A stretch of DNA of 64,000 bases from an uncultured Gammaproteobacteria bacterium (GTDB lineage Bacteria; Pseudomonadota; Gammaproteobacteria; Pseudomonadales; JAHEGP01). The stretch is from positions 38,915 through 102,914 of the forward strand of contig CAVROQ010000010.1 of NCBI GenBank assembly GCA_963722805.1, in the 5' to 3' direction. The notes under the pieces are model-generated. The model was given only the letters and a program-made list of their open reading frames with translations. It was not told the origin of the DNA and made no database searches. The translations under genes and the position numbers were made by a program. This document shows, piece by piece, positions 10,264 through 33,044 of the stretch (positions are counted from its first letter, which is position 1; the number at the start of each line of letters is the position of its first letter).

Positions 10264-10270
10264 AGACATC

Positions 10271-15516: not shown

Positions 15517-15519
15517 GCT

Positions 15520-16575
15520 GTGAAGTGGTTACGCCTGAATCCGATTACCGTCAAACGCTGGCAACGCTTTCGCGCGATTCGACGCGGCTACTGGTCGGCT
15601 GTAATCCTCGGCGCGCTGATTTTATTCAGCTGCTTCGCCGAACTGTTTATTAATAACCGGGCGCTGTTGGTGATATATGAGGGAGAGTGGTTTTTCCCTA
15701 CCTATGGTGCGATTATGCCTGGCCGGGAGTTTGGTCTGGATTACGACTACGAAACCGACTACAGGGAACTGCAGCAAAGCTTTGCTGAAAAGCCGGACAG
15801 CCGCAACCGGGTGATTATGCCCCTTGTCCCCTACAGTCCGCTGGAAACTGACCTGCGTTACGACGACTTTCCGCCCTATGCTCCCTCAATATCACAACGG
15901 CATTATCTGGGGACCGATACCACCGGCAGGGATATCGTTGCTCGACTGGTTTACGGCTTTCGCATCGCCATCTGGTTTTCTCTCATACTTCTGGCCTGCA
16001 ACTACCTGATCGGCGTTACCCTGGGATGCATGATGGGATTCTGGGGTGGAGCGTTCGACCTGGTTTTTCAGCGACTGATAGAAATCTGGTCGAATATTCC
16101 ATTTCTCTACGTCATTATGATTGTCGCCTCGATTGTACCGCCAGGCTTTTGGACCCTGCTCGGCATCATGATCATCTTCGGATGGACCAGTATGACGTGG
16201 TACATGCGAACGGCCACTTATAAAGAAGGAGCGCGTGATTATGTGATGGCTGCGCGTGCACTGGGAGCGTCCAATTCAAGAATTATCTTTCGCCATATAC
16301 TGCCCAATACCGTTTCAACAATTGTCACATTCGTGCCCTTTTCGGTGGCATCAGGCATCACCGCACTAACTGCACTCGACTACCTGGGATTTGGCCTGCC
16401 GCCCCCGACTCCGAGCTGGGGCGAACTGCTCAAGCAAGGAACCGATAACCTTGAATCGGTGTGGATTGCAGGCGCTGTGGTGCTGGCGATGACCGTGGTA
16501 CTGATGCTGGTAACCTACATTGGCGAAGCCATCCGCGAAGCCTTTGATCCGAGAAAATTCAGCTACTATGAATAA
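15520..16575 (+). CDS. yejE: Peptide ABC importer permease (YejE-like)
   Basis: 351 aa. LNPITVKRWQRFRAIRRGYWSAVILGALILFSCFAELFINNRALLVIYEGEWFFP parallels the E. coli YejE N-terminus. A DppC-type EAA region is present. Confidence 0.85.
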   Translation: MKWLRLNPITVKRWQRFRAIRRGYWSAVILGALILFSCFAELFINNRALLVIYEGEWFFPTYGAIMPGREFGLDYDYETDYRELQQSFAEKPDSRNRVIMPLVPYSPLETDLRYDDFPPYAPSISQRHYLGTDTTGRDIVARLVYGFRIAIWFSLILLACNYLIGVTLGCMMGFWGGAFDLVFQRLIEIWSNIPFLYVIMIVASIVPPGFWTLLGIMIIFGWTSMTWYMRTATYKEGARDYVMAARALGASNSRIIFRHILPNTVSTIVTFVPFSVASGITALTALDYLGFGLPPPTPSWGELLKQGTDNLESVWIAGAVVLAMTVVLMLVTYIGEAIREAFDPRKFSYYE

Positions 16576-18379
16576 TATTCGCCGCTTGCAAAGCCTTATC
16601 GTCGCCCTACTGCTTTCCGTTTGTCTCAACACCCGGGCAGAGCCACACAGTTTGCCCGACAATTTGCAATGGCAAACCAATTCTGAGGACCCCATCTTTG
16701 CATCCCCCGAAGCTATTCGCGGCGGGCGTTTTCGTACCTTTATGCTGAGTTTTCCCCTGACTCTGCGCTTGGTCGGCCCTGATTCCAACGGTGGTTTTGC
16801 GGGCTACATGCGGGCAAACAATTTGTCACTGGTTAGCATTCACCCGGACACCCTGAATCCAATCCCCGAGCTGGCCACCCATTGGGCCTTCGATCCCGAC
16901 GGTAAAACCGTATATTACCGACTTGATCCCGATGCCCGCTGGTCCGATGGAAAACCGGTCACCGCCGATGACTATATCTACACCCTTGTCTTTATGCGCT
17001 CCAAATATATCGTCGCTCCCTGGTACACCAACCACTTCACTAACGTTATTCAAGAGGTGCGGAAATACGACGACCACACCATTGCCATCAAAGGGGCGAC
17101 GGTAAAGCCGAGGGAGGAATTACTTTTCGAGTACGGGATAAGCCCCACACCCGCCCACTTCCATAAGCTCGACGAGAACTGGGTGAAAGACTACAACTGG
17201 AAGATTGAGCCCAATACCGGGCCCTACCAGATATGCCAGATCCGCAAAGGCAAATACATTGAATTCTGTCGCAAGCAAAACTGGTGGGGTAACGAAAGAC
17301 GTTACAACCGCCACCGTTTCAATCCGGACGAGGTAAGAGTAAAGGTCATACGCGATATCAATATCGCTTACCAGCATTTCGTCAAAGGTGAATTGGATAC
17401 CTTCGGCCTGGTAATGCCATCTTTCTGGCATAAAAAGGCCAGGGGCAAAATGTACGACAATGGCTATATTGGCAAGATCGTTTTTTACAACGAAGTGCCA
17501 CAACCCGCCAACGGCATTTATCTGAATGAAGATGACCCGCTCTTCGCTGACCGGGATGTGCGTTACGGATTTGCCCATGCGATGAATATCGACAAGATAT
17601 TGCGCACTGTTTTGCGCGGCGACTATGCCCGCCTGCAAACCATGAATGAGGGCTATGGCGACTACTCCAATCGGACCATTCGCGCCCGCGAGTTCGATCT
17701 CGACAAAGCTGAGCAATACTTCAGCAAAGCTGGCTGGCAGCAACGCGGCCCGGATGGTATACGCCTTAAGCAAGGGGAGCGTTTCTCGGTCCGCGTCACC
17801 TATGTCAACCCTTCGCATACTCCACGATTGGTGGTGCTTAAAGAAGAAGCTCGCAAAGCCGGGATCGAATTGAACCTGCAACTATTGGATGCCTCAGCGG
17901 GCTTTAAGCAGATACTCGAGAAAAAGCATCAGGTCGCATGGATGGGCTGGTCCGGCGGCGGTTTAGCACCGCGCTACTGGCAGTTTTTTCATTCAGATAA
18001 TGCGCATGTGGCCCAAACCAATAACATTACCAACACCGACGACCCACAGATGGACGAGACCATTGCGGCTTATCGCTCAGCCAAAGATAAGCAGTCCAGA
18101 GTTGAGCTCGCGCAACAACTGGAACAACAAGTGTATGACATTGGCTCGGTAATCCCCACGTTTAAGGTGCCGTACACTCGGGAGGCATTCTGGCGCTGGA
18201 TCAAGCTGCCGGATTTTCACGGCACTCGCACGTCGAGTGTTTTATTTTCTCCATTTGGATCTTCCGATGGACTCTTCTGGATCGATCCGGAAGAGAAGCT
18301 GCGGATCCAGCAGGCCCGACGCAATGGCGAAAAGCTGGAACCGATTTTCGTTGAAGATACTCGCTGGCGTCTACCATGA
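16568..18379 (+). CDS. yejA: Family-5 extracellular solute-binding protein (YejA-like)
   Basis: The track ORF starts at 16520. The ATG at 16568 gives the signal peptide MNNIRRLQSLIVALLLSVCLNTRAEP and overlaps the yejE stop. At about 600 aa it has an SBP_bac_5-like length. Confidence 0.85.
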   Translation: MNNIRRLQSLIVALLLSVCLNTRAEPHSLPDNLQWQTNSEDPIFASPEAIRGGRFRTFMLSFPLTLRLVGPDSNGGFAGYMRANNLSLVSIHPDTLNPIPELATHWAFDPDGKTVYYRLDPDARWSDGKPVTADDYIYTLVFMRSKYIVAPWYTNHFTNVIQEVRKYDDHTIAIKGATVKPREELLFEYGISPTPAHFHKLDENWVKDYNWKIEPNTGPYQICQIRKGKYIEFCRKQNWWGNERRYNRHRFNPDEVRVKVIRDINIAYQHFVKGELDTFGLVMPSFWHKKARGKMYDNGYIGKIVFYNEVPQPANGIYLNEDDPLFADRDVRYGFAHAMNIDKILRTVLRGDYARLQTMNEGYGDYSNRTIRAREFDLDKAEQYFSKAGWQQRGPDGIRLKQGERFSVRVTYVNPSHTPRLVVLKEEARKAGIELNLQLLDASAGFKQILEKKHQVAWMGWSGGGLAPRYWQFFHSDNAHVAQTNNITNTDDPQMDETIAAYRSAKDKQSRVELAQQLEQQVYDIGSVIPTFKVPYTREAFWRWIKLPDFHGTRTSSVLFSPFGSSDGLFWIDPEEKLRIQQARRNGEKLEPIFVEDTRWRLP

Positions 18380-19353
18380 GCATTCTAGAGGTTAAGCAAC
18401 TGCAAACAAGTTTCGCCACCGAACAGGGCAGAGTCCAGGTGCTGGACCGCGTCAACTTGCAGGTCAATAGTGGTGAGACTCTGGGTATTGTGGGCGAATC
18501 CGGCTGTGGAAAAAGTATTACCGCATTGTCGATAATGCGTTTGCTGCCCCAACCTTCCGGGCGCATCGACGGCGGCCAGATTCTGTTTCAGGGGCAGGAT
18601 CTTGTGCGAGCGACACCGGAATCGATGCACTCGATTCGCGGTAGGCAAATAGCGATGATCTTCCAGGAGCCCATGACGGCGCTCAATCCAGTGCAAAAGA
18701 TTGGCAAACAGCTGCAGGAGCCCTTCTTGTTGCACTGTCCCGAGATGTCGAGCTATGACCGCATCAAACGAGCCACCGGGTTGCTCGCTGAAGTGGGAAT
18801 CCCCTCGCCGGAAAAACGTCTCAATGAATATCCCCACCAGATGTCTGGCGGCATGCGCCAGCGTGTGATGATAGCCATAGCACTGGCGTTAAAGCCGGCG
18901 TTACTGATTGCAGACGAACCAACCACTGCGCTTGACGTGACGATACAGGCTCAGATCCTGGCATTGATCAAGACACTGCGGGAGCGCCATGGTACTGCCG
19001 TTATGCTGATTACCCATGACCTCGGAGTCATCGCTGAAACCTGTGACCGTATCGTGGTCATGTATGCGGGACGAGTAGCTGAATCTGCTAGTGTGGTGCA
19101 GTTGTTTCGCCAGCCCTCCCACCCTTACAGTGTCGGTTTGCTGGGCTCAATTCCGCGCCTGGATAGCGAATCTCGCACAGTACTGAATACCATTCCCGGT
19201 GTCGTTCCATCTATTGATCAGTTGGGTCATGGTTGCCGCTTCGCTGGTCGCTGTAGTTATGCGCGGGAGCAGTGCCGCGCCGAGCAGCCAGCAATGCAGC
19301 CAGTTGGCGACGATCACCAGGCCGCCTGCTACTTCTGGCAGGAGGTGGTCTAG
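18376..19353 (+). CDS. ABC transporter ATP-binding protein (DppD/YejF N-half-like)
   Basis: 325 aa with Walker A GESGCGKS, signature MSGGMRQRV, Walker [13 protein letters not shown] and the oligopeptide C-terminal Cys cluster. Confidence 0.92.
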
Positions 19354-20331
19354 ATGAGTGAGCCATTGCTGCAAGTCCTGCAGTTGAGCAAACACTTCCC
19401 TATTCGTGGCGGTGTATTTCGCCGGACGGTGGCTGAGGTTCACGCTGTCGATAACGTGTCATTCGATATTTATCCCGGTGAGACTCTCGGTCTGGTGGGC
19501 GAATCCGGCTGTGGTAAGAGCACCATCGGAAAAACCCTGCTGAAGCTACTTGGGCGCTTCGACGGCGAGATCTGGTTTCAGGGGCAACCACTTCACAGCT
19601 TGTCTTCCAGCGCAATCAAAGATCTGCGCAAAGACATCCAGATTGTTTTCCAGGACCCGATGGAGTCCCTCAACCCTCGGCACACGGTAGGCGAGATCAT
19701 CGAGGAACCGCTTATTATCCACCGCCAGGGAGACAGTGCCAGCCGCAGACAAAAGGTTATCCAACTGGCAGAACGTGTAGGCTTGTCGGCCAGTGCCCTC
19801 GACCGGTATCCTCATGAATTTTCTGGTGGCCAACGCCAGCGTATCGGTATTGCCCGAGCCATTGCTCTGGATCCTCGGCTTATTGTCTGCGATGAGCCGG
19901 TTTCTGCTTTGGACGTTTCAATCCAATCACAGATCCTGAACCTGCTGCTAGAATTGCAGAGAGATCTCAACATTGCGCTATTGTTTATTTCCCATGACCT
20001 GGCCGTTGTAAAACACATCTCTCACCGCATTGCGGTGATGTACCTGGGAAATATCGTTGAAATTGCGGATGCCGGAACCTTATATCTGCAACCCCGGCAC
20101 CCTTACACTCGCTCCCTCATTGACGCCATACCCAAGCCCTACCCTGGCTTTGACAAAGAGCGTGAACTTCTGCCGGGTGAGCCGCCCTCTCCCATCCACC
20201 CGCCTGCCGCTTGTCGCTTTCACCCGCGCTGCCCGATGGCACAAGAAAAATGTCGCGAAGTCGCACCGGAAATTGAAAAGGTGGGTGAAAACCATCAAGT
20301 GGCTTGTCACTTTTGGCGAGAAACTCTGTAA
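19354..20331 (+). CDS. ABC transporter ATP-binding protein (DppF/YejF C-half-like)
   Basis: 325 aa with Walker [10 protein letters not shown], signature FSGGQRQRI and Walker B LIVCDEPVSALD. It starts immediately after the previous stop. Confidence 0.92.
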   Translation: MSEPLLQVLQLSKHFPIRGGVFRRTVAEVHAVDNVSFDIYPGETLGLVGESGCGKSTIGKTLLKLLGRFDGEIWFQGQPLHSLSSSAIKDLRKDIQIVFQDPMESLNPRHTVGEIIEEPLIIHRQGDSASRRQKVIQLAERVGLSASALDRYPHEFSGGQRQRIGIARAIALDPRLIVCDEPVSALDVSIQSQILNLLLELQRDLNIALLFISHDLAVVKHISHRIAVMYLGNIVEIADAGTLYLQPRHPYTRSLIDAIPKPYPGFDKERELLPGEPPSPIHPPAACRFHPRCPMAQEKCREVAPEIEKVGENHQVACHFWRETL

Positions 20332-20466: not shown

Positions 20467-23400
20467 CTAGTTGCGCGAAAGGTGCTCGAGTTGATCAGCA
20501 CTGCTTAAGTATAACTCCTCGATCTTTTCAACCGGGATAGGCCTGCTTAGATAGTAGCCCTGAGCAATATCGCAGCCCTGCTTCTTCAAGAAGGCTCGCT
20601 GCAATTCTGTCTCGACTCCCTCGGCGACGACGCTCACATTAAGCACATGCGCAAGATCAATAATGGTTTTAACGATATCGGCATCAACCTGGTTGGTGAC
20701 AATATCAACGACAAAAGAACGATCGATCTTGATGACATCAACAGGGAAGCGCTTGAGATAATTTAGTGAAGAGTAACCTGTGCCGAAGTCGTCTATTGCA
20801 AGACTGAGCCCCATCGCCCTGAGCTTGGCCAGCGTGGCAATAACCTGATCGGGCTCCTCCATAATAGTGCTTTCGGTGATTTCCAACTCAAGGTACTGGG
20901 CCGGCAGGCCGGTTTCCCTGAGTATCAAGGCTATGGTATCGACCAATCCGGGATTGATAATCTGCTTGCCGGACAAATTTACCGAAGCGCACATCATCTT
21001 GAAACCGCGCTTGCGCCAACTCTGCAATTGCTCACAGACTTCCCGCAATACCCATTCACCCAGAGGCAAAATATGTCCTGTCTCTTCAGCAAGGTAGATA
21101 AACTCGTCTGGACCTACCAGACCTCGCTCCGGATGCTCCCATCGTATCAGGGCTTCCATCGCCGTCACCTTGCCCGTCTTGAGGTCTTCCTGAGGCTGGT
21201 AAAAGATCACAAATTCGCCGCGATCGAGGGCACCGCGCAAATCGTTCTCTAGCTGCAGGCGGCGACTCACATCCGCCTCCATTTGACTTTCATAGAACTG
21301 GTAGCGATCGCCCAGCTTCTTGGCTCGGTACATCGCCATGTCGGCACTTTTCAGCAAGGTGCCGATATCCTCCCCATGATCGGGAAACATTGCGATACCG
21401 ATACTGGTGCTGACGTACATTTCCTTGCCCATAAAAACAAACGGACGCGACAGCTGCTGATGGATTTTCTCTGCCACGTTGGCAACTGCTTCGGGCGATT
21501 TAACCCGGTCCAGCAATATCGTAAATTCATCGCCACCGAAGCGGGCGACCATATCTTCCTTACGCAGGCAGCCCTGGACCCGTTCAGAGAAATACTTGAG
21601 TAGCAGGTCTCCGGTTTCGTGGCCGAGGGTATCATTGACCAACTTAAAGCGATCCAGGTCAAGAAACATCAGGGCCAGCATACTGCTTTCGGGCCTCGGT
21701 CGTGCCAGAGCCTCGCCAAAATGCTCGTTGAACATTACCCGGTTCGGCAGCCCGGTAAGGGTATCTTTATAAGCCAACTGATGGACGTGGCGCTCTGCAT
21801 GATGGGCTTGCACCAGGTGTGTAATTCGTTTGCTCAATACCCAGAAATTTACAGGTTTGGCGATATAGTCAGTTGCTCCCGACGCAAATGCCTTGTTGAT
21901 CGAAGCCTCGTCATTGAGCGCGGTAATAATCAGCACGGGTACCTTGCGGGTCTGTGACAAATTTTGCAGCAGCGCACAGGCTGTGAAACCGTCCATTTTC
22001 GGCATGACGGCATCCATCAGCACCAGGTCCGGGGCCTGCTCTTCGCACTGGCTAAGGGCCTGCTCTCCATCTGCCGCCTCTTCAATCCAGTAACCTTCGT
22101 TACGCAATACTTCTGCCATAGCCATGCGGGAGCCGCGATCATCGTCGACGATCAGGATTCTGGGTTGCCCCGAATAACCAGGGTCAAGCTCGGTATTGGC
22201 GACATCCTCGGGGGTGGCTGCTGCTAACCTGGCCGCATCCTCTGAAAAATCTCCCTGCTTCAACCACGCCACCAGCGCATGACTCGCGGCACATACTTCA
22301 CCAACTTTCTTCTCGGCTCCCTCCAATTCGTCCTTGCGGGCCTGCGATTCCAATTGCTGGCTGATTTCAACCAGCCGCACTGCCCCGACGTTGCTTGCAC
22401 TACCCTTTATCGTATGGGCGATAACCGCCAACTTTATAGAGTCGCGCTGCTCCAGAGCCTGCTCCAGCGCTTCGAGATAAAGCGGCAGATCTTCCACGAT
22501 TGCCGCAATGACTTTTTCAACCGCCGGCCCAAGCTGGGCCTCAAGGTTTCGTAGCACCTGAATGTCTATGATCTCGGAAGTGTTCTCGATATCCTGGCCG
22601 CCGACAACAATCTCTTCCGGTTCAAAACCCTCGATATGCTCCCAGTTTTCGTCATCCGTTGGCCCCGATGCATCCAACCAACGTAACAGCTTTTCTTTCA
22701 GGGCATCCCGGCTAAGCGGCTTGGCCAGATAGTCATCCATTCCCACCGAGAGGCAGCGTTCGCTTTCACCCTCAGTGACGTTGGCAGTCATGGCGATGAT
22801 CGGCACATGGCTGTCTTCTGCCTCATACTCCCGGATAATTGCAGTTGCCTTATATCCGTCCAACTCGGGCATATGACAATCCATCAGCACCAGGTCGTAA
22901 CTAGCCCGGGCGATCTGGGCGAGGCATTCCTTGCCATTATTGACCACATCAGCCTGACATCCCATACGCTCGAGCATTGCCAACGCCACCTGCTGATTGG
23001 CACGATCATCCTCTACCACCAATAGCCGGCTGCCGCGAAACATAATGGCCGAGGGTTCGAGGAGTTTGCGTTGGGTAGATGCGGCATCGCCGGTTTTTTG
23101 AATTTCATTGATACAGCTCACAAGGTGATTACGCAACACCGGCTTGGTTAACACCGCGCTGGCATAATTTGCGCAAGTTGAGTCAGCAACAGACCCATAC
23201 CGCTGGATAAATATGACGCCCGCCTGCCGTAGCACCGGAACACCGCGCATATAACGCAACAGTTCAAAGCCGCGGCCACCATCGAGCATTTCGTCAAGGA
23301 GTACAAGCGTAAACGGCTGCTGTGAAGAGGCCTCGACCAGCTTTTCCTGTGCCTCATCAAAACTTGAGGCAACATCCCACTGGACACTGTTGCCATCGAG

Positions 23401-24966
23401 CATACAGCCAAGACTGCGCTGCATCAGAGGGTTGTTATCGATAATAAGCATGCGACCATGAGTGGACTTGATGCGGAGCAGCTTTGACGGGGTAGCCTCG
23501 CCACCTTGTTGCAACAGCGGCAGGGTAAACCAAAACCGGCTGCCCTCACCAGAGTCGCTGTCAACACCCATATCACCGCCCATCAACTGCACCAGTTGGC
23601 GAGAGATAGTCAACCCAAGTCCAGTGCCGCCAAACTTGCGTGTGGTAGATTCATCGCCCTGGGAGAATACTTCAAAGATCCGCTCTTGCTGCTCTTCGCT
23701 GATACCTATTCCAGTATCCCAGACTTCAAAGCGCAAATCGATGCTGTCAGTATTCATATTGATCACAGAGGCTTCAATGCCCACCGAGCCATGCTCGGTA
23801 AACTTGATAGCATTACCCGCGAGGTTTACCAACACCTGACGTATTCTATCGCTGTCTCCAATCAGGTATTCAGGAATTTCGGCTGCCGCAACATAAGCGA
23901 AATCAATATTCTTACGCTGGGCCTGTGGCCCCAGTAACACAACAATTTGCTCGAGGCATTCGTTCAGGTCGAACTCACGCAGCGATAACTGCGCTTTGCC
24001 TGCTTCATTTTTGGAGAAGTCCAGCAGATCATCAATCAGGCAGAGGAGAGACTCCGCCGAGCTTCGGGCTACTCCCACAAATTCCTTCTGCTTTTCACCA
24101 AGGCGCATGTCACTGAGCAGATCAAGCATGCCGAGCACGCCGTTCATAGGGGTTCGCAGCTCATGGCTCACATTGGCAGCGAACTCTCCCTTGGCTTTAG
24201 CAGATTCCAGAGCCTGGTCCCGTGCTAACCGCAGCGCCTCTTCCCTGCCGTCCAGCACGTCCATCATGGTATTGAAAGCGCTCTCCATATCGCGAATATC
24301 GCTGGTACCTCGCAGCTCTGCCCTGACCGCGTTCTCACCTTGCTCCGCCTTGCGCATGGTGCGGGCCAGATTCTGCAGGGGCCGGGTTAACCTTCCGGTA
24401 ATGGTGAGCAATGCGAGTAACAAAAAGGAGGCCAGAGCTATTGAGACCAGCAAGTTGTAACGAAAAATACTGCTCTCCATATTGTTGAGTGTTGCCTTGC
24501 TCATCATCACCCTGACATGACCAATCAGTTCCGGGCCATCGGCAACATTGGCAAATGGCGAATCTGCCCCACTGCCGCTATAAACCGGGGAATCGAAGTG
24601 CCAGGCTTCGGGAGTTTCCTGAAACAAAGCCAGTTCCGTGGAATGGGCACCACGAGAATAACCATCGGGGAGATCGCTAAACAATATGCGCTCTCTGACA
24701 TCAGTTATTTCAACAGCCTCGATATCGGGGAAGGCTTTGATAACAACAGCGGCCTCCGTCGCGCTATCTTCACTGCTATAAAGGAGGGCCAGGGTGCTTT
24801 GCTCGGCAAAGCTTTCTGTCAACTTGAGTCCTTCACCGATTAGCCGCTCGCGCAGCTTTTGGCTGGTCAGCTCAGAGATGACTATGCTCGAAATCAAGGC
24901 CAGCAAAAGCATACCAAGACTGAAGATAATGCCTAGCTGGTTTCTGAAGCTGATATTCTTAAGCAT
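20467..24966 (-). CDS. Multidomain hybrid sensor: TM-periplasmic domain-TM-HAMP-HisKA-HATPase-(atypical REC)-REC-Hpt-REC-GGDEF-EAL
   Basis: Domains read from N- to C-terminus:
- H-box FAANVSHELRTPMNGV;
- ATPase GNAIKFT...DTGIGIS...GGTGLGLTISRQLV;
- atypical REC RMLIIDNNP...LVLLDEML;
- REC LLVVEDDRANQ...LVLMDCHMPELDG...LAKPL;
- Hpt AHTIKGSASNVGA;
- REC ILIVDDDRGS...LVLMDAVMPKMDG...IAKPV;
- GGDEF with I-site RKEDMVARFGGDEF;
- EAL with EALIRW, ELEITES, DDFGTGYSSL, KIDRSF and EGVET. Confidence 0.95.
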   Translation of the reverse strand: MLKNISFRNQLGIIFSLGMLLLALISSIVISELTSQKLRERLIGEGLKLTESFAEQSTLALLYSSEDSATEAAVVIKAFPDIEAVEITDVRERILFSDLPDGYSRGAHSTELALFQETPEAWHFDSPVYSGSGADSPFANVADGPELIGHVRVMMSKATLNNMESSIFRYNLLVSIALASFLLLALLTITGRLTRPLQNLARTMRKAEQGENAVRAELRGTSDIRDMESAFNTMMDVLDGREEALRLARDQALESAKAKGEFAANVSHELRTPMNGVLGMLDLLSDMRLGEKQKEFVGVARSSAESLLCLIDDLLDFSKNEAGKAQLSLREFDLNECLEQIVVLLGPQAQRKNIDFAYVAAAEIPEYLIGDSDRIRQVLVNLAGNAIKFTEHGSVGIEASVINMNTDSIDLRFEVWDTGIGISEEQQERIFEVFSQGDESTTRKFGGTGLGLTISRQLVQLMGGDMGVDSDSGEGSRFWFTLPLLQQGGEATPSKLLRIKSTHGRMLIIDNNPLMQRSLGCMLDGNSVQWDVASSFDEAQEKLVEASSQQPFTLVLLDEMLDGGRGFELLRYMRGVPVLRQAGVIFIQRYGSVADSTCANYASAVLTKPVLRNHLVSCINEIQKTGDAASTQRKLLEPSAIMFRGSRLLVVEDDRANQQVALAMLERMGCQADVVNNGKECLAQIARASYDLVLMDCHMPELDGYKATAIIREYEAEDSHVPIIAMTANVTEGESERCLSVGMDDYLAKPLSRDALKEKLLRWLDASGPTDDENWEHIEGFEPEEIVVGGQDIENTSEIIDIQVLRNLEAQLGPAVEKVIAAIVEDLPLYLEALEQALEQRDSIKLAVIAHTIKGSASNVGAVRLVEISQQLESQARKDELEGAEKKVGEVCAASHALVAWLKQGDFSEDAARLAAATPEDVANTELDPGYSGQPRILIVDDDRGSRMAMAEVLRNEGYWIEEAADGEQALSQCEEQAPDLVLMDAVMPKMDGFTACALLQNLSQTRKVPVLIITALNDEASINKAFASGATDYIAKPVNFWVLSKRITHLVQAHHAERHVHQLAYKDTLTGLPNRVMFNEHFGEALARPRPESSMLALMFLDLDRFKLVNDTLGHETGDLLLKYFSERVQGCLRKEDMVARFGGDEFTILLDRVKSPEAVANVAEKIHQQLSRPFVFMGKEMYVSTSIGIAMFPDHGEDIGTLLKSADMAMYRAKKLGDRYQFYESQMEADVSRRLQLENDLRGALDRGEFVIFYQPQEDLKTGKVTAMEALIRWEHPERGLVGPDEFIYLAEETGHILPLGEWVLREVCEQLQSWRKRGFKMMCASVNLSGKQIINPGLVDTIALILRETGLPAQYLELEITESTIMEEPDQVIATLAKLRAMGLSLAIDDFGTGYSSLNYLKRFPVDVIKIDRSFVVDIVTNQVDADIVKTIIDLAHVLNVSVVAEGVETELQRAFLKKQGCDIAQGYYLSRPIPVEKIEELYLSSADQLEHLSRN

Positions 24967-24993
24967 CAATTAATCTAACCTTTGGCCTCTGGC

Positions 24994-25965
24994 CTATTGT
25001 CTCGGAAAAACAACGTCTATTTCTCGAATTCTGGCGCGCGAAATATTCAAGCCCAAGTGCTCCGCAGTCCGAATATTCACCGCTCTCAGCAAGTCCCGTG
25101 CGTGTTCAATTCCGATATTATTGCCGTCTCGCTTGGCCACAAGCGCCTTGGCTATCGAATTGCCAAGGCCCTGATTGTCTGGATAGAGTGAGAATAGAAC
25201 ACCCTTTGAAACATAGGAAGGGTTACTGGAAAATACCAATAACTTGCGGTTCCATGCCCCCTTTAAGACATGGTACAAAACTGACCGTTCGCGCAGTGCA
25301 ATATCTCCCTGCAATAGCCAGACACTATCTTGTCCCGGGGCCAGGGTTTTAAACAAAGCCCGGTACCGGCTTGCGGATTCGGACAGTGATTCAATCAAAT
25401 AGGCTTCCAGTTGAAGACCATGCGCTGCGGCAACGGCTTTGGCTCGCTGCATCAAGCGCCCATGAAGCTTTTGCTGGTAAATGACGTGAACGGTTTTGAT
25501 TTCTGGCGCCAGAGCAACAAGCTCACGAAACATTTCGTCGGGGTCAGGTGCCAGGGTTATGGCGGTAAAGTCCGGCTCAACTGTCACCGGAGCCGCTAAT
25601 ATCGCGCTGCTGATGGTCAAGTAACTGGGCGGCAGTTGTTGCACAAAGTCCATAGCCTGGTTGCCCAACGCGACCACGGTTTTCAATTGGGTGCTGTCCA
25701 TGATAGCGACGACATCATCCAGGCTGGCATTACGCGCAAGCACCCGATCTTTCACCTCCCCCGGGTAACCCGCTCGAATGCCCTCGATAATATCAGTAAA
25801 TACGCGGACATAGGGGTCTGGCACATCGGGATATAGCACTACGATATCATCGGCAACATCGCCCTGTGCGAACACCGGAATTGCAAGCAAAAGCAGCTGA
25901 ATACCGCAAACCAGCACCGTGGCGGTTTTGAAGCGCAACCATTGGCCCCAGAGCACAGACTTCAA
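24994..25965 (-). CDS. Periplasmic type-I binding protein, ABC_sub_bind (PF04392)-like, with no cognate permease or ATPase nearby
   Basis: 323 aa with signal peptide TATVLVCGIQLLLLAIPVFAQG. An alternating beta-alpha PBP pattern is visible. The C-terminus RAVNIRTAEHLGLNISRARIREIDVVF resembles the typical end of the PF04392 family. The gene ends 24 nt upstream of the hybrid kinase gene. Confidence 0.55.
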   Translation of the reverse strand: MKSVLWGQWLRFKTATVLVCGIQLLLLAIPVFAQGDVADDIVVLYPDVPDPYVRVFTDIIEGIRAGYPGEVKDRVLARNASLDDVVAIMDSTQLKTVVALGNQAMDFVQQLPPSYLTISSAILAAPVTVEPDFTAITLAPDPDEMFRELVALAPEIKTVHVIYQQKLHGRLMQRAKAVAAAHGLQLEAYLIESLSESASRYRALFKTLAPGQDSVWLLQGDIALRERSVLYHVLKGAWNRKLLVFSSNPSYVSKGVLFSLYPDNQGLGNSIAKALVAKRDGNNIGIEHARDLLRAVNIRTAEHLGLNISRARIREIDVVFPRQ

Positions 25966-26019: not shown

Positions 26020-26841
26020 TCAGTCATGGGTCACCGGGCGCTCCTTGACACCGGTATATTTAATATCGTCACAGCTCAAAGGCAAAAACGATCCTGGCGG
26101 ATTTTTATGATTCTCCTCATAGCAGGCGTGGATTCCACCATTTACACAAAGACTGAATACAATGTAGCCTTGATACTGATCAAGGCCTTGATCAAGCCAA
26201 AAAGCACTCAGGTAACCCGCCAGGTTTAACGATTCACCGTATTTTTTACCGAGATACTCCTGAATACGGTAAGCGGCAGTCAGGTGGGCCCCGTCTGCAA
26301 ACCCCAGATTTCCGGCGACTCTTTGCATTGCGGCGACTCTTTCATCGCCGGCCGCTATCGGGCGCAAATACCCAGGAACCATAATCTTGCCTTTGCGTTT
26401 CGCATGACCTTCAATAAAATCTGCGGCCGATTGCCCGGCGAGCAACGACTTCCTGGCTTGGGCAATAAAACTAAGGGTATCCATTACAGTGCCTGGCCCA
26501 TACACCCTGGAATCGCTGGCCATGATACCGGCGCATATTGCAGCTGAGGGTAATACCCGCGCATCACCTCCTAACGCCCCGATCTGGTTACACCAGATTC
26601 TGGGGTCAGGCCAGCTCAAACATATAAATGCGCTCTCCATCCAATCAGATAGCCGTTTTTCCGGCATTTTACCGGTTACATTCAATAGCAACACCTGGAA
26701 GAAGCTCGCCTTCCCAACCAGGTCATCCATCATTGAGTAGCCCTGATTGGAAACGCCTTGCCCAAGCACCCAACCGCCTTTCCGGGAATAAATCTGGCCG
26801 CGGCGTTTATGCCAATAATCCTGGGGAGCGACGTCAGTCAT
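26020..26841 (-). CDS. Citrate synthase-fold protein B (citryl-CoA lyase-like, canonical catalytic His positions substituted)
   Basis: Likely start is the ATG at 26841 (MTDVAPQDYW; the track ORF extends to 26910). Family-like segments are SMMDDLVGKASFFQVLLLNVTGKMPEKRL, WPDPRIW, MVPGYLRPIAAGDERV and NLAGYLSAFWLDQG. GYLR replaces GFGHR, and GPGTVM replaces GPLHGGA. No signal peptide is present. Confidence 0.55.
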   Translation of the reverse strand: MTDVAPQDYWHKRRGQIYSRKGGWVLGQGVSNQGYSMMDDLVGKASFFQVLLLNVTGKMPEKRLSDWMESAFICLSWPDPRIWCNQIGALGGDARVLPSAAICAGIMASDSRVYGPGTVMDTLSFIAQARKSLLAGQSAADFIEGHAKRKGKIMVPGYLRPIAAGDERVAAMQRVAGNLGFADGAHLTAAYRIQEYLGKKYGESLNLAGYLSAFWLDQGLDQYQGYIVFSLCVNGGIHACYEENHKNPPGSFLPLSCDDIKYTGVKERPVTHD

Positions 26842-27685
26842 CCGATCCACTCCACTGATAGTGATAATGGCTATCGCTAACAAAGGGCATGTCCGTGATC
26901 GGTTTACCACTCATTTCAATACCATGCGCCAGCAAGCCGGGGCTGGATGCCAGTTGAAACAGGCCTGCACCAACATTTGGCGAAAACCCCAGCTCGGTAA
27001 AGATGGCGGCAGCAATGCCAGGCATTTGCCACCCAAGATTCGAACTGCGCATACCACTCACAAACGCCACACCCCAGGCCAACGCTTCGTTGTCTGGAAA
27101 GGATTGATGTAATCGCACTGCCGCGGCATCTGCGAAGGTATCGACACCTGCAAAGCAGCTGCCGAAGCCAGGTGCCACGCAAATGGGTTCTCCCTCAGCA
27201 CGCGGCTTATCCTGCAGCTCCTGGCTCAGCTCTACAGCCAGGACCAGGGGATCTTTACGGATGTTTTTACGCAGAAACTTAATCGCATTGCGTACTTGTG
27301 CAGCGCCAAGATGCTCACCGCCAAGCAACGCAAGCCCGATCGGCAAAAGATGCAGCGGATCGGCCCTGGACACGCTGGCATTCATCACGGCACGAGTACC
27401 CGCGTGGCGCGGGCCGGGATTTGCTAGCAAGATCAGTATTTGTTGCAATTGAGACGCTTGCCCGGCACTGGGAAGTTCACCTTTCAATAAGCAAAAAATA
27501 ACCTCAACCAGGCTTCTGCGCTCCATTAGGTCGAGCACATCGTAGCCATGCCATAACACCCGCTGCGCCACAAAGGGGTTTTCCGGGTCAGGAATTTCCT
27601 GGCAGACCTTGGTACTCACCTTGTCGGAAAACACATCGCCACGAGCTTTTACAAGCGCTTCTTCAGGCGAGTTCAGTTTTGTCAT
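26834..27685 (-). CDS. Citrate synthase-fold protein A (citryl-CoA lyase-like, GFGH His replaced)
   Basis: 283 aa. Family-like segments are RVLWHGYDVLDLMERRSLVEVIFCLLKGELPSAGQ, LANPGPRHAGTRAVMNASVSRADPLHLLPIGLALLGGEHLGAA and APGFGSCFAG. Canonical enzymes read PGFGHRVY at that last position. The start overlaps the receptor stop (TAATG), and the stop overlaps the start of protein B (ATGACTGA). Confidence 0.55.
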   Translation of the reverse strand: MTKLNSPEEALVKARGDVFSDKVSTKVCQEIPDPENPFVAQRVLWHGYDVLDLMERRSLVEVIFCLLKGELPSAGQASQLQQILILLANPGPRHAGTRAVMNASVSRADPLHLLPIGLALLGGEHLGAAQVRNAIKFLRKNIRKDPLVLAVELSQELQDKPRAEGEPICVAPGFGSCFAGVDTFADAAAVRLHQSFPDNEALAWGVAFVSGMRSSNLGWQMPGIAAAIFTELGFSPNVGAGLFQLASSPGLLAHGIEMSGKPITDMPFVSDSHYHYQWSGSDD

Positions 27686-29901
27686 TAGAATTGATACCTG
27701 ATTTTGCCGTAAATAGCCCTGCCGGCCAGCGGGAAGTCACCGGGTACCAGAGATCCTCCGGGGATAGCCGCCTCACCCGGGCTCGGCTCGTAAGCCTCGA
27801 CATCGAATACGTTGTTCACTATCAGCGAAATATCCATATGATTGATGATATTGGTACGGCGCAGCACCAGCGACGTGAGCGTGTAATCACCTATCGGATC
27901 GCGCGGGTCTCCAGCTTCACGCTTGCGATCGGCGACCCATTTTGCCTGGCCATTCAGCTCCCAGTCATATGCGAAATTCCACCGCAGATCGGCGAACAGC
28001 TGGTGTTGTGGCGCGTTAGGAACATCTTTATCAGAATCATCGAAATAGGATTTCTGCCAGGCGTAATGTGTCTTCAGGGAAAGGCTTGATGTCATACGCC
28101 ATTCAGCTTCGATTTCGAAGCCGTAACCCGTCTGTCCGCCCGTATTTTTTGCCCGCCGGGCACCCGATTCCACAAGGTCCCCATTGCCATCTAGTTCTTC
28201 CGCTTCAACCGGTACAAACTGAATCAGGTCATCAATCTCGTAATAATAAACATTGAGTCCGGTGCTCAAGTCGAAGGTAGGACGGTAGTCGAAAGCCACC
28301 TCCAGGGTATTGATCGTTTCCGGATCAAGGTCGGGATTCCCAAGGCCTACGGGATTGTTTTCAACAAACAGCTCGGCAAACGATGGCGCCCTGAAGGCCC
28401 GCCCATAGAGAAATTTGGTGGTGAGATCCTGGCGGGTATTCCAAACCAGCGCGACCCGGGGGTTAACCGTTGAGCCAAAATCCGAGTAGTGATCATAACG
28501 AACGCCGAGGGTAAGGTTCCAATCTGAGGCCAGGGCCCATTCGTCCTGCAGCGAAGCGTAATAAACCGTGCGACTCTCGTCGGGGATAAAGTTGTATTCC
28601 GTCCCGGTCACAGAGGTCAATGCCCCATCAATAACCTGATAAACCTCCACCGGATTTAATGCCAGACCACCATAATTCTTGGTCTCTTCGCCATGCAGCC
28701 TGGCGTAGATCAGGCCGCCAGCGAGACGAATAGTGTGACGATCAAAACCCGTGTAAAAGGCTGAGGTATCCAGGCGCTGGTGCTCTTCATACACTTCAGG
28801 ATTACCCAGCATACCGTCAGTAAAAAGCCCAAAGCCGGCGATAGAGTCCGGAATAAAAGCGCCATCCTCGTCAAATTGAATCGCTGCGATGTTACCGTCT
28901 GCACCCAATGGCAGTAGCGCACCCGCCGGGAATAAATCCTGCTCGGACTTGGTGTTGATATCCATATAACTCAGCTTGGCTTCATACTCCCAATACTTGA
29001 CGCTATCCCGGTTGACGTAAGCCAGGTCGACAAGATAATTATTCGCCTCAGATGTACCCCCCGGGTCTAATGCCAACGCCAGGCCGGGTCCCACACCCGC
29101 CTGCTGTCGCCAATTCCAGGCTGAGAATTTCCAGTGCTGCCAGCTGATCGCAGCCCGAATATCCGCTCGTTTTTCATCCGTCGCCGCTTGAGACGGCGCC
29201 AGAGAGGCTGTCGTCTGCAGAAAATTGTCAATCGTGGTCTGTGCATCTGCATCGATTATGCGGCCACTATCCCCATCGGTTTTGAGAAAATTCGCTGAAA
29301 ACATCAGCTCGACCTCTCCCAGCTGGCTGCCGTTGAGCAGCCACAGCTCCTGGGTATTAAATGAGCCGGCCCGCACACCGAGTTGAGTACCATCAATCTG
29401 CTTGCTGGTTTTAGTAATGACATTGATGACACCGGCAAAAGCGTCGGCACCGTATATGGCTGAACCCGGGCCCCGAATCACCTCAACCCTTGCAATATTA
29501 CTGACAGGAAGTGTGTTTTTCGCGCCACGATCGCCAAAATAGAGTTGGGTAATAGGCGTTCCATCCACCAGCATCAGCACCTGGGGATTTTTGTCCGTAT
29601 GAATACCTCGCATCGAATAAATCGGCGAGAAGCGGTAGGAGGAAAGCGCGACATGCAATCCCGGCACGGTTTCCAACACCTGGTCCAGGTTTGCTGCACC
29701 CATTGCCTCGATTTCACTGGCAGTAATCACCGTAGCAACGGCCGGCGCCTCGGATATGGCCAATTGCTGGCCGGTGGCGATACTGACGAAATCCTCATCA
29801 CCGAAGGACAGCAACAGGTCTTCGTCAGCGGCGTGGCTGGCGGCGGCAAGCGGCACCAGCAATGCTAACCAATGGCGATGATAACGAACTAAATTAGTCA
29901 T
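27685..29901 (-). CDS. TonB-dependent outer-membrane receptor
   Basis: The ATG at 29901 gives signal peptide MTNLVRYHRHWLALLVPLAAASHA (the track ORF extends to 29943). The plug domain is present (ISEAPAVATVITASEIEAMGAANLDQVLETVPGLHV...VEVIRGPGSAIYGADAFAGVINVITK). A long beta-barrel follows and ends in the terminal aromatic motif GKIRYQF. Confidence 0.92.
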   Translation of the reverse strand: MTNLVRYHRHWLALLVPLAAASHAADEDLLLSFGDEDFVSIATGQQLAISEAPAVATVITASEIEAMGAANLDQVLETVPGLHVALSSYRFSPIYSMRGIHTDKNPQVLMLVDGTPITQLYFGDRGAKNTLPVSNIARVEVIRGPGSAIYGADAFAGVINVITKTSKQIDGTQLGVRAGSFNTQELWLLNGSQLGEVELMFSANFLKTDGDSGRIIDADAQTTIDNFLQTTASLAPSQAATDEKRADIRAAISWQHWKFSAWNWRQQAGVGPGLALALDPGGTSEANNYLVDLAYVNRDSVKYWEYEAKLSYMDINTKSEQDLFPAGALLPLGADGNIAAIQFDEDGAFIPDSIAGFGLFTDGMLGNPEVYEEHQRLDTSAFYTGFDRHTIRLAGGLIYARLHGEETKNYGGLALNPVEVYQVIDGALTSVTGTEYNFIPDESRTVYYASLQDEWALASDWNLTLGVRYDHYSDFGSTVNPRVALVWNTRQDLTTKFLYGRAFRAPSFAELFVENNPVGLGNPDLDPETINTLEVAFDYRPTFDLSTGLNVYYYEIDDLIQFVPVEAEELDGNGDLVESGARRAKNTGGQTGYGFEIEAEWRMTSSLSLKTHYAWQKSYFDDSDKDVPNAPQHQLFADLRWNFAYDWELNGQAKWVADRKREAGDPRDPIGDYTLTSLVLRRTNIINHMDISLIVNNVFDVEAYEPSPGEAAIPGGSLVPGDFPLAGRAIYGKIRYQF

Positions 29902-30212
29902 AAAACGCGGCCTGAAGACAGATGAACTTTTGAAATGCGGCACGCTCCCGGTGCTCTGCTTCTGCCCGGTGTTGGTTTATTAATTATTGGCAGCAACTGC
30001 TTTGAACGACTAGCTGGCATCTCTCTCAACGCTTATGCAAGGCTTTATTTGACGATAACTCCAGACTTTACTAAAGACTTGAAAGCTTAAGAGAAAGCCT
30101 AGGTTAGGCCAGGGAATCATGCCACCATATATCGCTTTAATTCTAATTGTCAGGTCGGTAACAATTGGGGGCGTTTCAGCCGCTGGAAGACGCACCCTGA
30201 CTGATATTCAAA

Positions 30213-32195
30213 TCATGCCCCAAGTACCTGGGCCCTGAGGTCCATGGGCGGCACCTCATCTGGATCGACGCAGATATCGAGCAGGGTCGGGCCATGTTCG
30301 TGATAAATATCTTCAATGCTTAAATCCAGTAAATCCTGGGGACAGCGAATCCTGAAACTGCGTATGCCCATAGCCTTTGCGATCGCGCTAAAATCAACAT
30401 CCGGCAAGTCATAGCCAATCGGTTCTGCGCCCGTGAGTTTTTGGCCGTGCTTTACCATGCCCAAGGCTCCGTCATTCAAAACGATAAACACAACCGGCAC
30501 CCTATGCTGCTGAGCCACAGACATCTCCTGACCACTCATCAGCATGCTGCCGTCACCGGTAATGCATACCGTAATCTGCCTGGGAGCAGCCAATGCAGCG
30601 CCTACCGAAGCGCCTATAGCCCATCCCATCGAAGAAAACTCGAGGGCCGCCTGGAATAGCCCGCCTACACTGCTACGCCGGCCTGACTCTGCGTCCTTGC
30701 GCGCTATACCCCGGGCCTCATGACGACGCTCCAGAATACGCCTGTCAAAAGGGTTAAGATAATGGATGGCCCAAACTACGCTATTGCCCGCATCCGCGAG
30801 ATAGCGAGTGCTGGGCGGAAACAAACGTGTCAGGTATGCCATCAACCACTGCGGTTTTACCAGTGCCTGCTCCCAGCCGGGAGTGCCGTCCATATCGAGG
30901 GGCTCGTTAGCACCCCTACTTTTACTTTCACCCAGTTGCGAGCGCAAATGCTTGACCTTAGCGTCTTCAGAAAACTCAGAGCCGCACGCATCTTTTTCAT
31001 CAAAGGACGCCAAAATACTCTCAAAAATTGAGACCAGCCTGCCGCGTACATGGAGTCTCGCCATGGGTGAGCGGGTAAAATTGCTGGCAAGCGGTTCGAC
31101 ATGGATCAGGCGACGATTGAGCAAGGCATGGAGATCCCAACCATTACTGGAAAACTCGCCGAGACAAGTTCCTACCGCGACCACCGTGTCGACATCCACA
31201 TCCAGCAGCGCCTTACGGGCGCTTTCATGACCACCAAAGCCGATCACCCCGCAGTAAAGGGGATGATATGAACTGATCAGCCCCTTGCCGTCCGGGGTTG
31301 TTACAATCCTTGCATTCAGCTTGAACGCCACTCGAAGTATCAGCGCGATGGCCTCGTGGCAGCCCTCACCGAGCACGAACACCGTTCCGGAAGAATCCTC
31401 CAATTGGGCGCAAAACTCCTGCACCGCAGTCTCATCTTGCATGTGCGGGGCACGCAGCAGGGCCCGGGCATCGTACCTGGGTTTGTCAATCGACAAGGGG
31501 CTACGAAGAATATCCAGGGGAACACTGAGGTGAACCGGGCAGCTGCTACTAATAGCCGTCATAATCGCAGTAATCAGTTTTTGCTCGAATTGCTCTACAT
31601 GGCTCACCATGGTGTTGTAACCCGTGCAGAACTGGAACATACCAACGGTATTAACGCCAGTGTCCGATGACTCTTGCAGAGCTTTACGACCAAAATTATT
31701 AAGCGCAGTCTGCGCCGTAATTACCAGCAACGGGACGTTATTTTCGTAGGCAGACGCGACACCGGTAATAAGGTTAGTTGTGCCCGGGCCAGTGGTGGCG
31801 CAGCAGACACCCAGTTTGCCGCTATTGCGGTTATAACCGTGGGCCATAAAAGCAGCACCGGTCTCATGCCTGGCAACAATAGCCCGGGGGCCGCCACAAC
31901 GCTCGCTTCTTGCCAGGGCATTATAAAGCGGCTCTATGGCACCGCCCGGCACACCAAAAATATAATCCACATCGATCGAAGACAAATAAGCCACTAGCAG
32001 GTCACTGGTATTAAAGGGCCTTGGTTCACGCGCCACTTCAGCGCCATGAAAAACCTTTTCGGCGGGCAATTGCGACACCCGAGCTTGCTGCAGTGACAAT
32101 TGCGCCTGGTCTTTAACAAATTGCCCCATAAACCCTGACTCCTCGAAAGCTCTGTCGGACCACTGAGTGAATCTATCAGTATTCTTTTTCTTCAA
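30213..32195 (-). CDS. Thiamine-diphosphate-dependent enzyme (acetolactate synthase large subunit-like) with N-terminal extension and internal insertions
   Basis: The Pyr domain reads YIFGVPGGAIEPLYNAL...ARHETGAAFMAHGY...CCATTGPGTTNLITGVASAYENNVPLLVITAQ. The ThDP-binding motif is GDGSMLMSGQEMSVAQQHRVPVVFIVLNDGALGMV. The canonical fold begins at about residue 62 of the 660-aa ORF, so the start codon is uncertain. Confidence 0.85.
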   Translation of the reverse strand: MKKKNTDRFTQWSDRAFEESGFMGQFVKDQAQLSLQQARVSQLPAEKVFHGAEVAREPRPFNTSDLLVAYLSSIDVDYIFGVPGGAIEPLYNALARSERCGGPRAIVARHETGAAFMAHGYNRNSGKLGVCCATTGPGTTNLITGVASAYENNVPLLVITAQTALNNFGRKALQESSDTGVNTVGMFQFCTGYNTMVSHVEQFEQKLITAIMTAISSSCPVHLSVPLDILRSPLSIDKPRYDARALLRAPHMQDETAVQEFCAQLEDSSGTVFVLGEGCHEAIALILRVAFKLNARIVTTPDGKGLISSYHPLYCGVIGFGGHESARKALLDVDVDTVVAVGTCLGEFSSNGWDLHALLNRRLIHVEPLASNFTRSPMARLHVRGRLVSIFESILASFDEKDACGSEFSEDAKVKHLRSQLGESKSRGANEPLDMDGTPGWEQALVKPQWLMAYLTRLFPPSTRYLADAGNSVVWAIHYLNPFDRRILERRHEARGIARKDAESGRRSSVGGLFQAALEFSSMGWAIGASVGAALAAPRQITVCITGDGSMLMSGQEMSVAQQHRVPVVFIVLNDGALGMVKHGQKLTGAEPIGYDLPDVDFSAIAKAMGIRSFRIRCPQDLLDLSIEDIYHEHGPTLLDICVDPDEVPPMDLRAQVLGA

Positions 32196-33044
32196 ACGGG
32201 CACTTGCTATCCAGCCTGCCCGCTTGCGATATTGCCCCTACAGAAACGCCAAAATCTTTATTAGTTATGCCTAATGCAAAAACAAACACTCACCCCTCTC
32301 TGCCGAGTGGGCGAACCTTGATCATCCATGACTGAGTTACCTTACAATTCCTGCGAGCCTTCCCGACCCCTGAGTCCAATCTTATTATTTTGGCTTATTC
32401 AGACCCTGTCTTCCCAATTCTCAAGCTCGCAATAGTTACCAACTTCAGTACCCACGCTAGGCCAGCGCGCCCGTTTTCAAATAAGGAGATCACTGCCACA
32501 AGCACCGCCCTGCCTTGCCCACAGAACTCGCTGCATTCGCTTGTTTACTATAGCTACCAACGCGCAACCCGGATAGCTAGAGACGTCCGTACTAAAACGC
32601 TTCTCCTTTCTTTATAACTCATTGGCCCGTACACAAACAACCACCAAACAAGCGTTTTCTGCGAAGTAGACCAAATTTTTTTTTATGCAAGCTAATGCTA
32701 AAACTATTTGCAGCGCCTACCCATTATTCAGTGCGGCGATGCCCGAAGCCAGCGGTCGTTGCTCGATGCTTAAAACCACAACGGCCGACCAACCGGGATA
32801 TGCGCAACCGTTCAAGCAGCTATGTATCAAGGGTATTAGAATTTAGCAGCCCTGAAATCGGGGATGACTACCAGCTCTTGCAGAGCAGACAAGCCAAACC
32901 GCCATAACACACAACGGCACACAGCTTATCAGCACGGTTTGATTCTGGTAGCAGCGGTAAAAAACATCGCCACCAGACATTTTTTGTTGCAGATCCGACG
33001 GGCGATGCACCAAAACTCAAGTCGTCATCAACCGCCGATGACCC

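Follow-up and report, generated by a model that had tools for sequence, protein, structure and literature searches.

Two overlapping genes on the minus strand of a 64,000-nucleotide (nt) stretch of DNA from an uncultured Gammaproteobacteria bacterium (contig CAVROQ010000010.1; the whole stretch is called here the window) encode proteins A (26834..27685, 283 amino acids (aa)) and B (26020..26841, 273 aa). Both have the fold of citryl-coenzyme A (CoA) lyase, the catalytic residues of this type of enzyme are replaced in the families of both proteins, and the pair is encoded together with a TonB-dependent outer-membrane receptor. From their sequences, we rate A/B as a variant of a known fold family inside a previously undescribed conserved module. 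With a probability of roughly 0.45, the two proteins would form a heteromeric, neofunctionalized enzyme acting on a molecule derived from a CoA thioester or an oxo acid and tied to the cargo of the receptor, with biosynthesis as the favoured direction. A preliminary description of the window had noticed two adjoining, overlapping genes of the citrate synthase fold with substituted catalytic histidines. The open reading frames (ORFs) are confirmed, as are the motifs quoted at that time (GGEHLGAA and PGFGSCFAG in A, YGPGTVM and PGYLRPIAAG in B), and inspection of the translations by eye reveals no hydrophobic N-terminus, in line with the claimed lack of a signal peptide in either protein.

The citrate synthase relationship of A and B is far above chance. 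In phmmer searches against the PDB, the citryl-CoA lyase of Hydrogenobacter thermophilus (6HXP) is matched over its full length by A (E 4.3e-11) and by B (E 1.1e-10), and the family profiles match it at E 1.8e-24 (A, residues 12-231) and E 3.4e-18 (B). AlphaFold models built on the family alignments reached predicted local distance difference test (pLDDT) values of 86.6 for A and 87.0 for B. Compared by Foldseek, the B model matches 6HXP with E 6.5e-11 and template modelling (TM) scores of 0.76/0.80, followed by the citryl-CoA-lyase cores of ATP-citrate lyases, the TM scores ranging from 0.7 to 0.8. The citryl-CoA-lyase fold is thus assigned to B by its model and to A by its profile match to 6HXP. 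As paralogues, A and B are only distantly related: hhalign pairs them with a probability of 97.5% and an identity of 19%, the NPGPRH motif of A being aligned to WPDPRI of B. Hallmarks of A are NPGPRH..R (89-98), LPI, PGFG (172-175), W204, GW, Q244 and PG..AHG.E, and those of B are PDPRIWCN (78-85), Y114-G115, R160-P161, N206, D217 and FLPLxC257DDIxYxG. Pfam and NCBIfam have no family for B or for the A/B pair. Protein A scores 34.7 bits against PF00285 (gathering score 27) over residues 41-126 only, which correspond to model positions 20-103, and B has no Pfam match at E <= 0.1. The NCBIfam citryl-CoA lyase models (PRK06224, NF004864-NF004869) are not reached (60.0 versus 261 for A, 47.8 versus 193 for B), and the citrate synthase equivalogs of NCBIfam give 13-25 bits for A and B against cut-offs of 420-590. 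In the source annotations, members of the families are called 'citrate synthase', 'citrate/2-methylcitrate synthase' or 'hypothetical'.

The fate of the catalytic residues was followed in 194 A and 187 B sequences aligned to 6HXP, with positions given in pig citrate synthase numbering. The equivalent of His320 is Ser, Thr, Asn, Ala, Lys or Arg in the A family (His in 0/194), and in the B family it is the invariant Arg160 or a one-residue gap. The equivalent of Asp375 is Thr, Pro or Val in the A family (QMPG in the window) and Ala, Asn, Gly or Ser in the B family (NLAG in the window), and that of Arg401 is lost in both. Arg329 has no equivalent in the A family and is kept in the B family as R168 of the GDER motif (187/187). 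As to His274, it is absent from the B family, where the invariant Tyr114-Gly115 region is found, and a His is present in 143 of the 194 A sequences; His125 is the candidate in window A, in a register against 6HXP that differs by two residues between two alignments. The motif GGEHLGAA, which A was earlier said to keep, is present in the window protein; its His125 is not shared by the whole family. For the rest, the register read by eye was essentially right, and retention of the catalytic His and Asp upon proper alignment is ruled out, since they are substituted family-wide; the loss of the Asp375 and Arg401 equivalents in both proteins and the survival of the Arg329 equivalent in B come as additions. 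Over the set His274, His320, Asp375, Arg329, Arg401 and Arg421', neither protein has the residues of an active citrate synthase or citryl-CoA lyase. Judged by these alignments, the degeneracy of A/B is a family trait and not a local accident.

New invariant residues accompany this loss. In the A family R93, H94, R98, W204, W219, Q244, H254, E257 and Y274 are invariant together with the PGFG loop, which we take to be the CoA adenine-binding loop known from citrate synthase and which is kept although the catalytic His that should follow it is gone. The B family has ~17 invariant polar residues, including D79, R81, N85, Y114, R160, D166, R168, D217, D259 and R268, and C257 is likewise invariant (187/187). 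Polar residues of this constancy in place of the catalytic ones fit a specific anionic ligand or an active site, and not a decaying pseudogene.

The genes of A and B are physically linked by fusion and stand in a conserved neighbourhood. In 61 of 74 loci the two genes overlap, and in nearly all others they lie within 25 nt of each other. In addition, an exhaustive profile search brought up proteins, 503-574 aa long, that are matched in two stretches, and both hallmark motifs are present in the A::B fusions P0259, P0287, P0296 and P0323. The P0259 locus has the order ThDP (thiamine diphosphate) enzyme, A::B, receptor, dehydrogenase and kinase. Because of the conserved overlap and the natural fusions, a heteromer of A and B is probable on indirect, genomic evidence, and the earlier proposal of such a heteromer is strengthened accordingly. 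Distant relatives of B occur in other architectures (P0247, 523 aa; P0309, 425 aa; P0340, 428 aa), namely a B-B tandem and B followed by unidentified C-terminal domains of ~130-160 aa. In the window, the receptor gene ends at CAATTCTAATG, its TAA overlapping the ATG of gene A (TAATG), and the stop of gene A and the start of gene B overlap by 8 nt (GGATGACTGA), the TGA of gene A being placed 8 nt within gene B (ATGACTGA). For gene B, the mechanical ORF list gives a GTG start at 26910, and alignment of homologues moves it to the ATG at 26841 (MTDVAPQ...). Both stop/start overlaps are as first described; however, the coupling of receptor to A is only one of several gene orders found elsewhere.

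A survey in which one genome per species was scanned for A relatives found them in at least 191 species genomes, and the A/B families comprise >1000 protein clusters. Among the carriers are Cellvibrio, Teredinibacter, Spongiibacteraceae, Chromatiales, Thiotrichaceae, Gallionellaceae (Sideroxydans, Gallionella), Desulfobulbaceae (including Candidatus Electrothrix), Desulfuromonadales (including Malonomonas rubra DSM 5091) and Nitrospirota, and the module is also found in Nitrosococcus and Candidatus Nitrosoglobus. Six query proteins of the window were mapped on 80 loci, and partners were counted in the 46 species loci with at least 8 kb on each side. B adjoins A in 43 of these (45 when artefacts of ORF starts are allowed for), and a receptor of the same subfamily (460-1575 bits against the window receptor) is present in 45, so that the alternative of ordinary lyases without receptor linkage, which the preliminary description had left standing, is not borne out. 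Of the other partners, the ThDP enzyme lies close by in 39/46 loci, a kinase or GGDEF-EAL sensor in 35/46 and a PF04392 binder in 18/46; at other loci DUF4154/YfiR-like periplasmic domains stand in for this binder.

Gene order within the module varies across loci. The full row of six genes seen in the window, with the same sensor architecture at its end, recurs in Nitrosococcus wardiae (L096, CP038033.1), in Inmirania thermothiophila (L097) and in three close relatives of the window (L007-L009). The former two, both cultured species, have an A'/B' subfamily that is more divergent, scoring 85 and 138 bits against window A and B, and A' carries NPGPRE where window A has NPGPRH. In ~16 loci of several classes a short-chain dehydrogenase of the PRK06500/BudC-like type lies directly downstream of B, and in Cellvibrio fibrivorans BE190 (L050, 10768-12360) B is fused in frame to such a C-terminal dehydrogenase in a protein of 530 aa. 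At the same locus, a YfiR/DUF4154-like periplasmic domain forms the N-terminal part of the kinase encoded upstream of the receptor. Desulfobulbaceae loci have a sulfotransferase gene between B and the ThDP enzyme. Finally, some A genes are orphans that lack B, receptor and ThDP enzyme in their vicinity (L037, L041-L043); in a few genomes they stand directly behind genes of FadB-like, acyl-CoA synthetase and 4HBT thioesterase proteins, as at L037, where the gene (9977-10813) begins 27 nt downstream of that of a 4HBT thioesterase. Full-text searches of the literature retrieved no description of the combination of A/B, receptor and ThDP genes or of the structures of BbmA and CsmA.

The other members of the row went unnoticed at first, namely the ThDP enzyme upstream and the binder and sensor downstream, all of them in one conserved module on the minus strand (ThDP enzyme, receptor, A, B, PF04392 binder and sensor). 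The receptor (27685..29943) is a TonB-dependent outer-membrane protein by its Plug (PF07715, 84.8 bits) and TonB_dep_Rec_b-barrel (PF00593, 143.6 bits) domains and has no N-terminal signalling extension; no substrate-specific NCBIfam model comes near its cut-off, and it has no close solved relative. The enzyme of the acetolactate-synthase superfamily (30213..32195, with a probable ATG start at 32129 that gives 638 aa) has the Pfam domains TPP_enzyme_N/M/C and, by eye, the activating Glu (HE) and the ThDP motif GDG-x-N. Its best NCBIfam matches (ALS, ScyA-related and 5-guanidino-2-oxopentanoate decarboxylase, ~250 bits each) are far under the cut-offs, and its best PDB matches are BbmA (8x3x, E 2e-81) and CsmA (8x3z). 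It does not score as an acetolactate synthase (TIGR00118, 252 versus 538; AlsS, 188-210 versus 510-551), and neither a small subunit of that enzyme nor an acetolactate decarboxylase is encoded in the module. Members of its family are 55-60% identical across Gammaproteobacteria, among them those of Nitrosococcus wardiae and Inmirania thermothiophila, and are named only 'thiamine pyrophosphate-binding protein'. In metagenome-assembled genomes of Thiotrichaceae (L002-L004 and L070, ~9060-9830), only C-terminal fragments of the ThDP gene are left, in several frames, upstream of an intact A-B-receptor set; to judge from these fragments, this gene looks like a pseudogene.

Downstream of B, a protein with a signal peptide (24994..25965) resembles periplasmic binding proteins (PF04392, ABC_sub_bind, 26.8 bits versus a cut-off of 25.9; best PDB match 3lkv, E 9.4e-06). 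It is followed by a membrane hybrid sensor of 1500 aa (20467..24969) with the Pfam architecture HAMP-HisKA-HATPase-REC-Hpt-REC-GGDEF-EAL.

Some features of the surrounding DNA can be added. The gap of 270 nt between the ThDP-enzyme and receptor genes contains a conserved non-coding leader (30000..30140, minus strand), of which ~130 nt are conserved, with 78% nucleotide identity to L007 and ~70% in its core to L008 and L009. This conservation is at about the level of the flanking proteins and is restricted to close relatives of the window, the leader not being found in more distant loci. A weak putative long-range stem (GGTGGCAT...ATGCCAGC) shows almost no covariation among the few sequences compared, and an Rfam search at E <= 1 across 19-35 kb returned only a chance HIV match and no known RNA or riboswitch upstream. 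The ~850 nt upstream of the ThDP-enzyme gene (32196-33044) contain no real-looking ORF of at least 80 aa, no Rfam match and no blastn similarity to the matching regions of L007-L009. On the plus strand, genes for an ABC transporter of the Opp/Dpp type (14491-20331), comprising an SBP_bac_5 protein with two permeases and two ATPases, run convergently towards the end of the sensor gene. Such genes also adjoin the module in L007-L009; since this synteny is confined to close relatives, the transporter was rejected as a part of the module. An SBP_bac_5 gene also lies upstream at L094, the locus of a divergent A::B fusion.

The preferred reading, that of a neofunctionalized enzyme, can be spelled out as follows. 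A and B would form a heteromer of the citryl-CoA-lyase fold that has lost citrate/citryl-CoA chemistry, gained a new conserved polar pocket and acts on a small metabolite derived from a CoA thioester or a 2-oxo acid. A CoA-linked or oxo-acid-derived anionic metabolite is suggested by the retained PGFG loop, the invariant arginines, the acyl-CoA genes next to orphan A and the dehydrogenase fusion, and the linkage to the dehydrogenase favours A/B as an enzyme over a non-catalytic use of the fold. The heteromer would usually cooperate with the ThDP enzyme, of the carboligase/decarboxylase type, and in many genomes with the short-chain dehydrogenase. The metabolite or its product would be the extracytoplasmic ligand of the co-encoded receptor, and the binder and the histidine-kinase/GGDEF-EAL sensor, where present, may read this ligand and set the levels of cyclic di-GMP (c-di-GMP). 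Nitrosococcus, Candidatus Nitrosoglobus and Gallionellaceae are chemolithoautotrophs; because of such carriers and of the lineage-variable tailoring enzymes, biosynthesis appears likelier than catabolism of a nutrient, and we lean towards a self-made, re-captured extracellular signal or chelator.

Several observations weigh against this reading. A divergent A::B fusion is coupled to an array of multi-sensor kinases with neither ThDP enzyme nor receptor in view, and this arrangement would also fit a role in signalling or ligand sensing. The ThDP enzyme is missing or decayed in ~8 loci that retain A, B and the receptor (~7 with absence judged within 10 kb, and the pseudogene in one lineage), which indicates that A/B do not strictly depend on it and weakens the idea of an obligatory complex with it. 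Clustering of all other neighbourhood ORFs gave no conserved exporter or inner-membrane importer that would connect the cytoplasmic enzymes with the cargo of the receptor. Lastly, Cys257 is invariant in the window subfamily and absent from Inmirania B', so that a mechanism based on this residue would not be general.

The enzyme reading has a bolder version, quite improbable as a whole, in which the module is a new circuit of cell-cell or self-signalling with an acyloin-type autoinducer, re-uptake through the receptor and c-di-GMP as output. Here A/B would present an acyl group in the form of a CoA ester, the ThDP enzyme would couple this group with a 2-oxo acid, and the dehydrogenase would reduce the resulting diketone to an acyloin-type molecule. 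Once released, and possibly as a metal complex, this molecule would re-enter the periplasm solely via the TonB-dependent receptor, to be read by the periplasmic binder and the hybrid kinase. If true, a catalytically re-invented citrate synthase fold would here underlie an autoinducer pathway with energy-dependent uptake of the signal.

The chief rival to the enzyme reading, somewhat unlikely in our judgement, is a non-catalytic pseudoenzyme tied to c-di-GMP. A and B would then be a cytoplasmic ligand-binding or scaffold heteromer that regulates the ThDP enzyme, much as small subunits regulate acetolactate synthase, or that passes a metabolic cue (acyl-CoA or a dicarboxylate) to the kinase and c-di-GMP proteins. 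Such a role agrees with the family-wide disappearance of the three catalytic residues and with the frequency of sensor kinases and GGDEF-EAL proteins at these loci. It also agrees with the divergent fusion, which is translationally coupled to a dCache-GAF-PAS kinase, and has a precedent in ATP-citrate lyase, where the citryl-CoA-lyase fold serves as oligomerization core. However, a dehydrogenase directly after B, and one fused to it, is typical of consecutive enzymes, and many of the invariant residues at the former active-site positions are charged. Moreover, the sensors reside in the membrane and have their input domains and partners in the periplasm, so that a cytoplasmic input is not obviously needed.

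Catabolism is unlikely. In such a module, the receptor would import a scarce organic compound, for instance an acyloin, an aromatic or a carboxylate, which would be degraded in the cytoplasm by the ThDP enzyme, A/B and the dehydrogenase, and the sensor would induce the response. An operon of receptor and enzymes does resemble loci for nutrient uptake, the weaker PDB matches of the ThDP enzyme include ThDP lyases, for example benzaldehyde lyase, and Cellvibrio and Teredinibacter are degraders of polysaccharides and wood. On the other hand, a conserved inner-membrane transporter is lacking, the module occurs in chemolithoautotrophs, and the dehydrogenase and sulfotransferase, variable between lineages, look biosynthetic.

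Very doubtful is the proposal that B is a metal or iron-sulfur protein in which C74, C84, C240 and C257 bind a cluster or Zn, A/B being a redox or metal sensor or the electron acceptor of the ThDP enzyme. Of the 187 B sequences, 167 have all four cysteines. By alignment, C84 and C240 would map to the helices of the His238 and Arg401 equivalents, and C257 to the inter-subunit Arg position of RPRxxYxG or beside it. Yet single cysteines have been lost independently (C84 is Pro in 10 sequences, for example), and B' lacks C84 in Nitrosococcus and C74, C84 and C257 in Inmirania, both of which keep the six-gene row. An obligatory Cys4 cluster as a general feature of B was rejected on account of these losses and of the B' subfamily; a Cys4 site in the B proteins of the window subfamily is possible. 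As for ordinary subunits of citryl-CoA lyase or citrate synthase in central metabolism, as current annotations have it, the partial PF00285 match of A speaks for them, and against them speak the NCBIfam scores, the lack of a Pfam match in B, the absence of the His320, Asp375 and Arg401 equivalents from all ~190 members per family and a context of receptor and sensors instead of the tricarboxylic acid (TCA) or reductive TCA cycle. To the extent that sequence allows a verdict, this barely credible option is excluded.

To our knowledge, no chemistry other than that of citrate-type Claisen reactions is known for the citrate synthase/citryl-CoA-lyase fold. The large family described here retains this fold, one of the best studied in metabolism, drops its whole catalytic apparatus and gains an invariant pocket as an obligate pair of paralogues, and the database labels 'citrate synthase' and 'hypothetical' would mislead metabolic reconstructions. 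The partnership with the receptor and the frequent presence of ThDP enzymes and c-di-GMP sensors point to an undescribed small molecule that is made or sensed by environmentally important organisms, among them nitrifiers, iron oxidizers, relatives of cable bacteria, sulfur oxidizers and Cellvibrio. Since Nitrosococcus wardiae, Malonomonas rubra DSM 5091, Cellvibrio fibrivorans and Motiliproteus sp. MSK22-1 are available as cultured carriers, the function of A/B is directly testable.

Among known systems, the closest in fold are the citryl-CoA lyase 6HXP and the cores of ATP-citrate lyases (6HXN/6HXL/6QCL), which like A/B have ~260-280 aa and are devoid of the extra N-terminal part of citrate synthase. 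The PGxG loop, the N-terminal HGY..L motif and the C-terminal Y.G motif of 6HXP are kept in A/B. Unlike citryl-CoA lyase, A/B lack the catalytic His/His/Asp and the citrate-binding Arg401 family-wide, consist of two diverged paralogues (an overlapping pair or a fusion) instead of a single gene product, and are never encoded beside citryl-CoA synthetase or reductive-TCA genes, the receptor taking that place. With citrate synthase and 2-methylcitrate synthase, to which the homology is distant, B shares the GD(E)R motif of the Arg329 equivalent and the Asn of the NVD motif, but A/B are ~100 residues shorter and without the catalytic triad. The partner ThDP enzyme resembles AHAS/AlsS, ScyA and BbmA/CsmA in its three-domain architecture, activating Glu and ThDP motif; it differs from AHAS-type carboligases as a well-conserved family of its own, under every NCBIfam cut-off, accompanied by the A/B pair and not by an ACT-type small subunit.

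Siderophore and metallophore loci likewise encode biosynthetic-looking cytoplasmic enzymes together with a dedicated receptor, but a non-ribosomal peptide synthetase or NIS synthetase, a conserved exporter, a periplasmic shuttle and an ABC importer are missing here. Regulation by iron through Fur was rejected, as the best Fur-box matches ahead of 131 genes for a receptor or a ThDP enzyme are distributed as in random windows (a crude count of mismatches to the consensus); a Fur-regulated siderophore system was discarded in view of this lack of enrichment and of the absence of any conserved synthetase or transporter family from the neighbourhoods. A carboligase encoded together with a BudC-like dehydrogenase is reminiscent of the acetolactate-acetoin-butanediol pathway. 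In the alpha-hydroxyketone systems CqsA/CqsS of Vibrio and LqsA/LqsS of Legionella, an enzyme that uses acyl-CoA and a reductase produce a hydroxyketone, for which a membrane histidine kinase is the sensor. Signalling of the CqsA/CqsS type itself was rejected for the module, which encodes neither a pyridoxal phosphate-dependent CqsA homologue, nor any other protein of the aminotransferase class, nor a CqsS-type sensor, its own sensor being a HAMP hybrid kinase with GGDEF-EAL. The alpha-hydroxyketone systems also need no TonB-dependent receptor or periplasmic binder, and the output here would be c-di-GMP. The likeness is thus functional only: a ThDP enzyme, CoA-fold proteins, a dehydrogenase and a kinase could together produce and detect molecules of a comparable kind.

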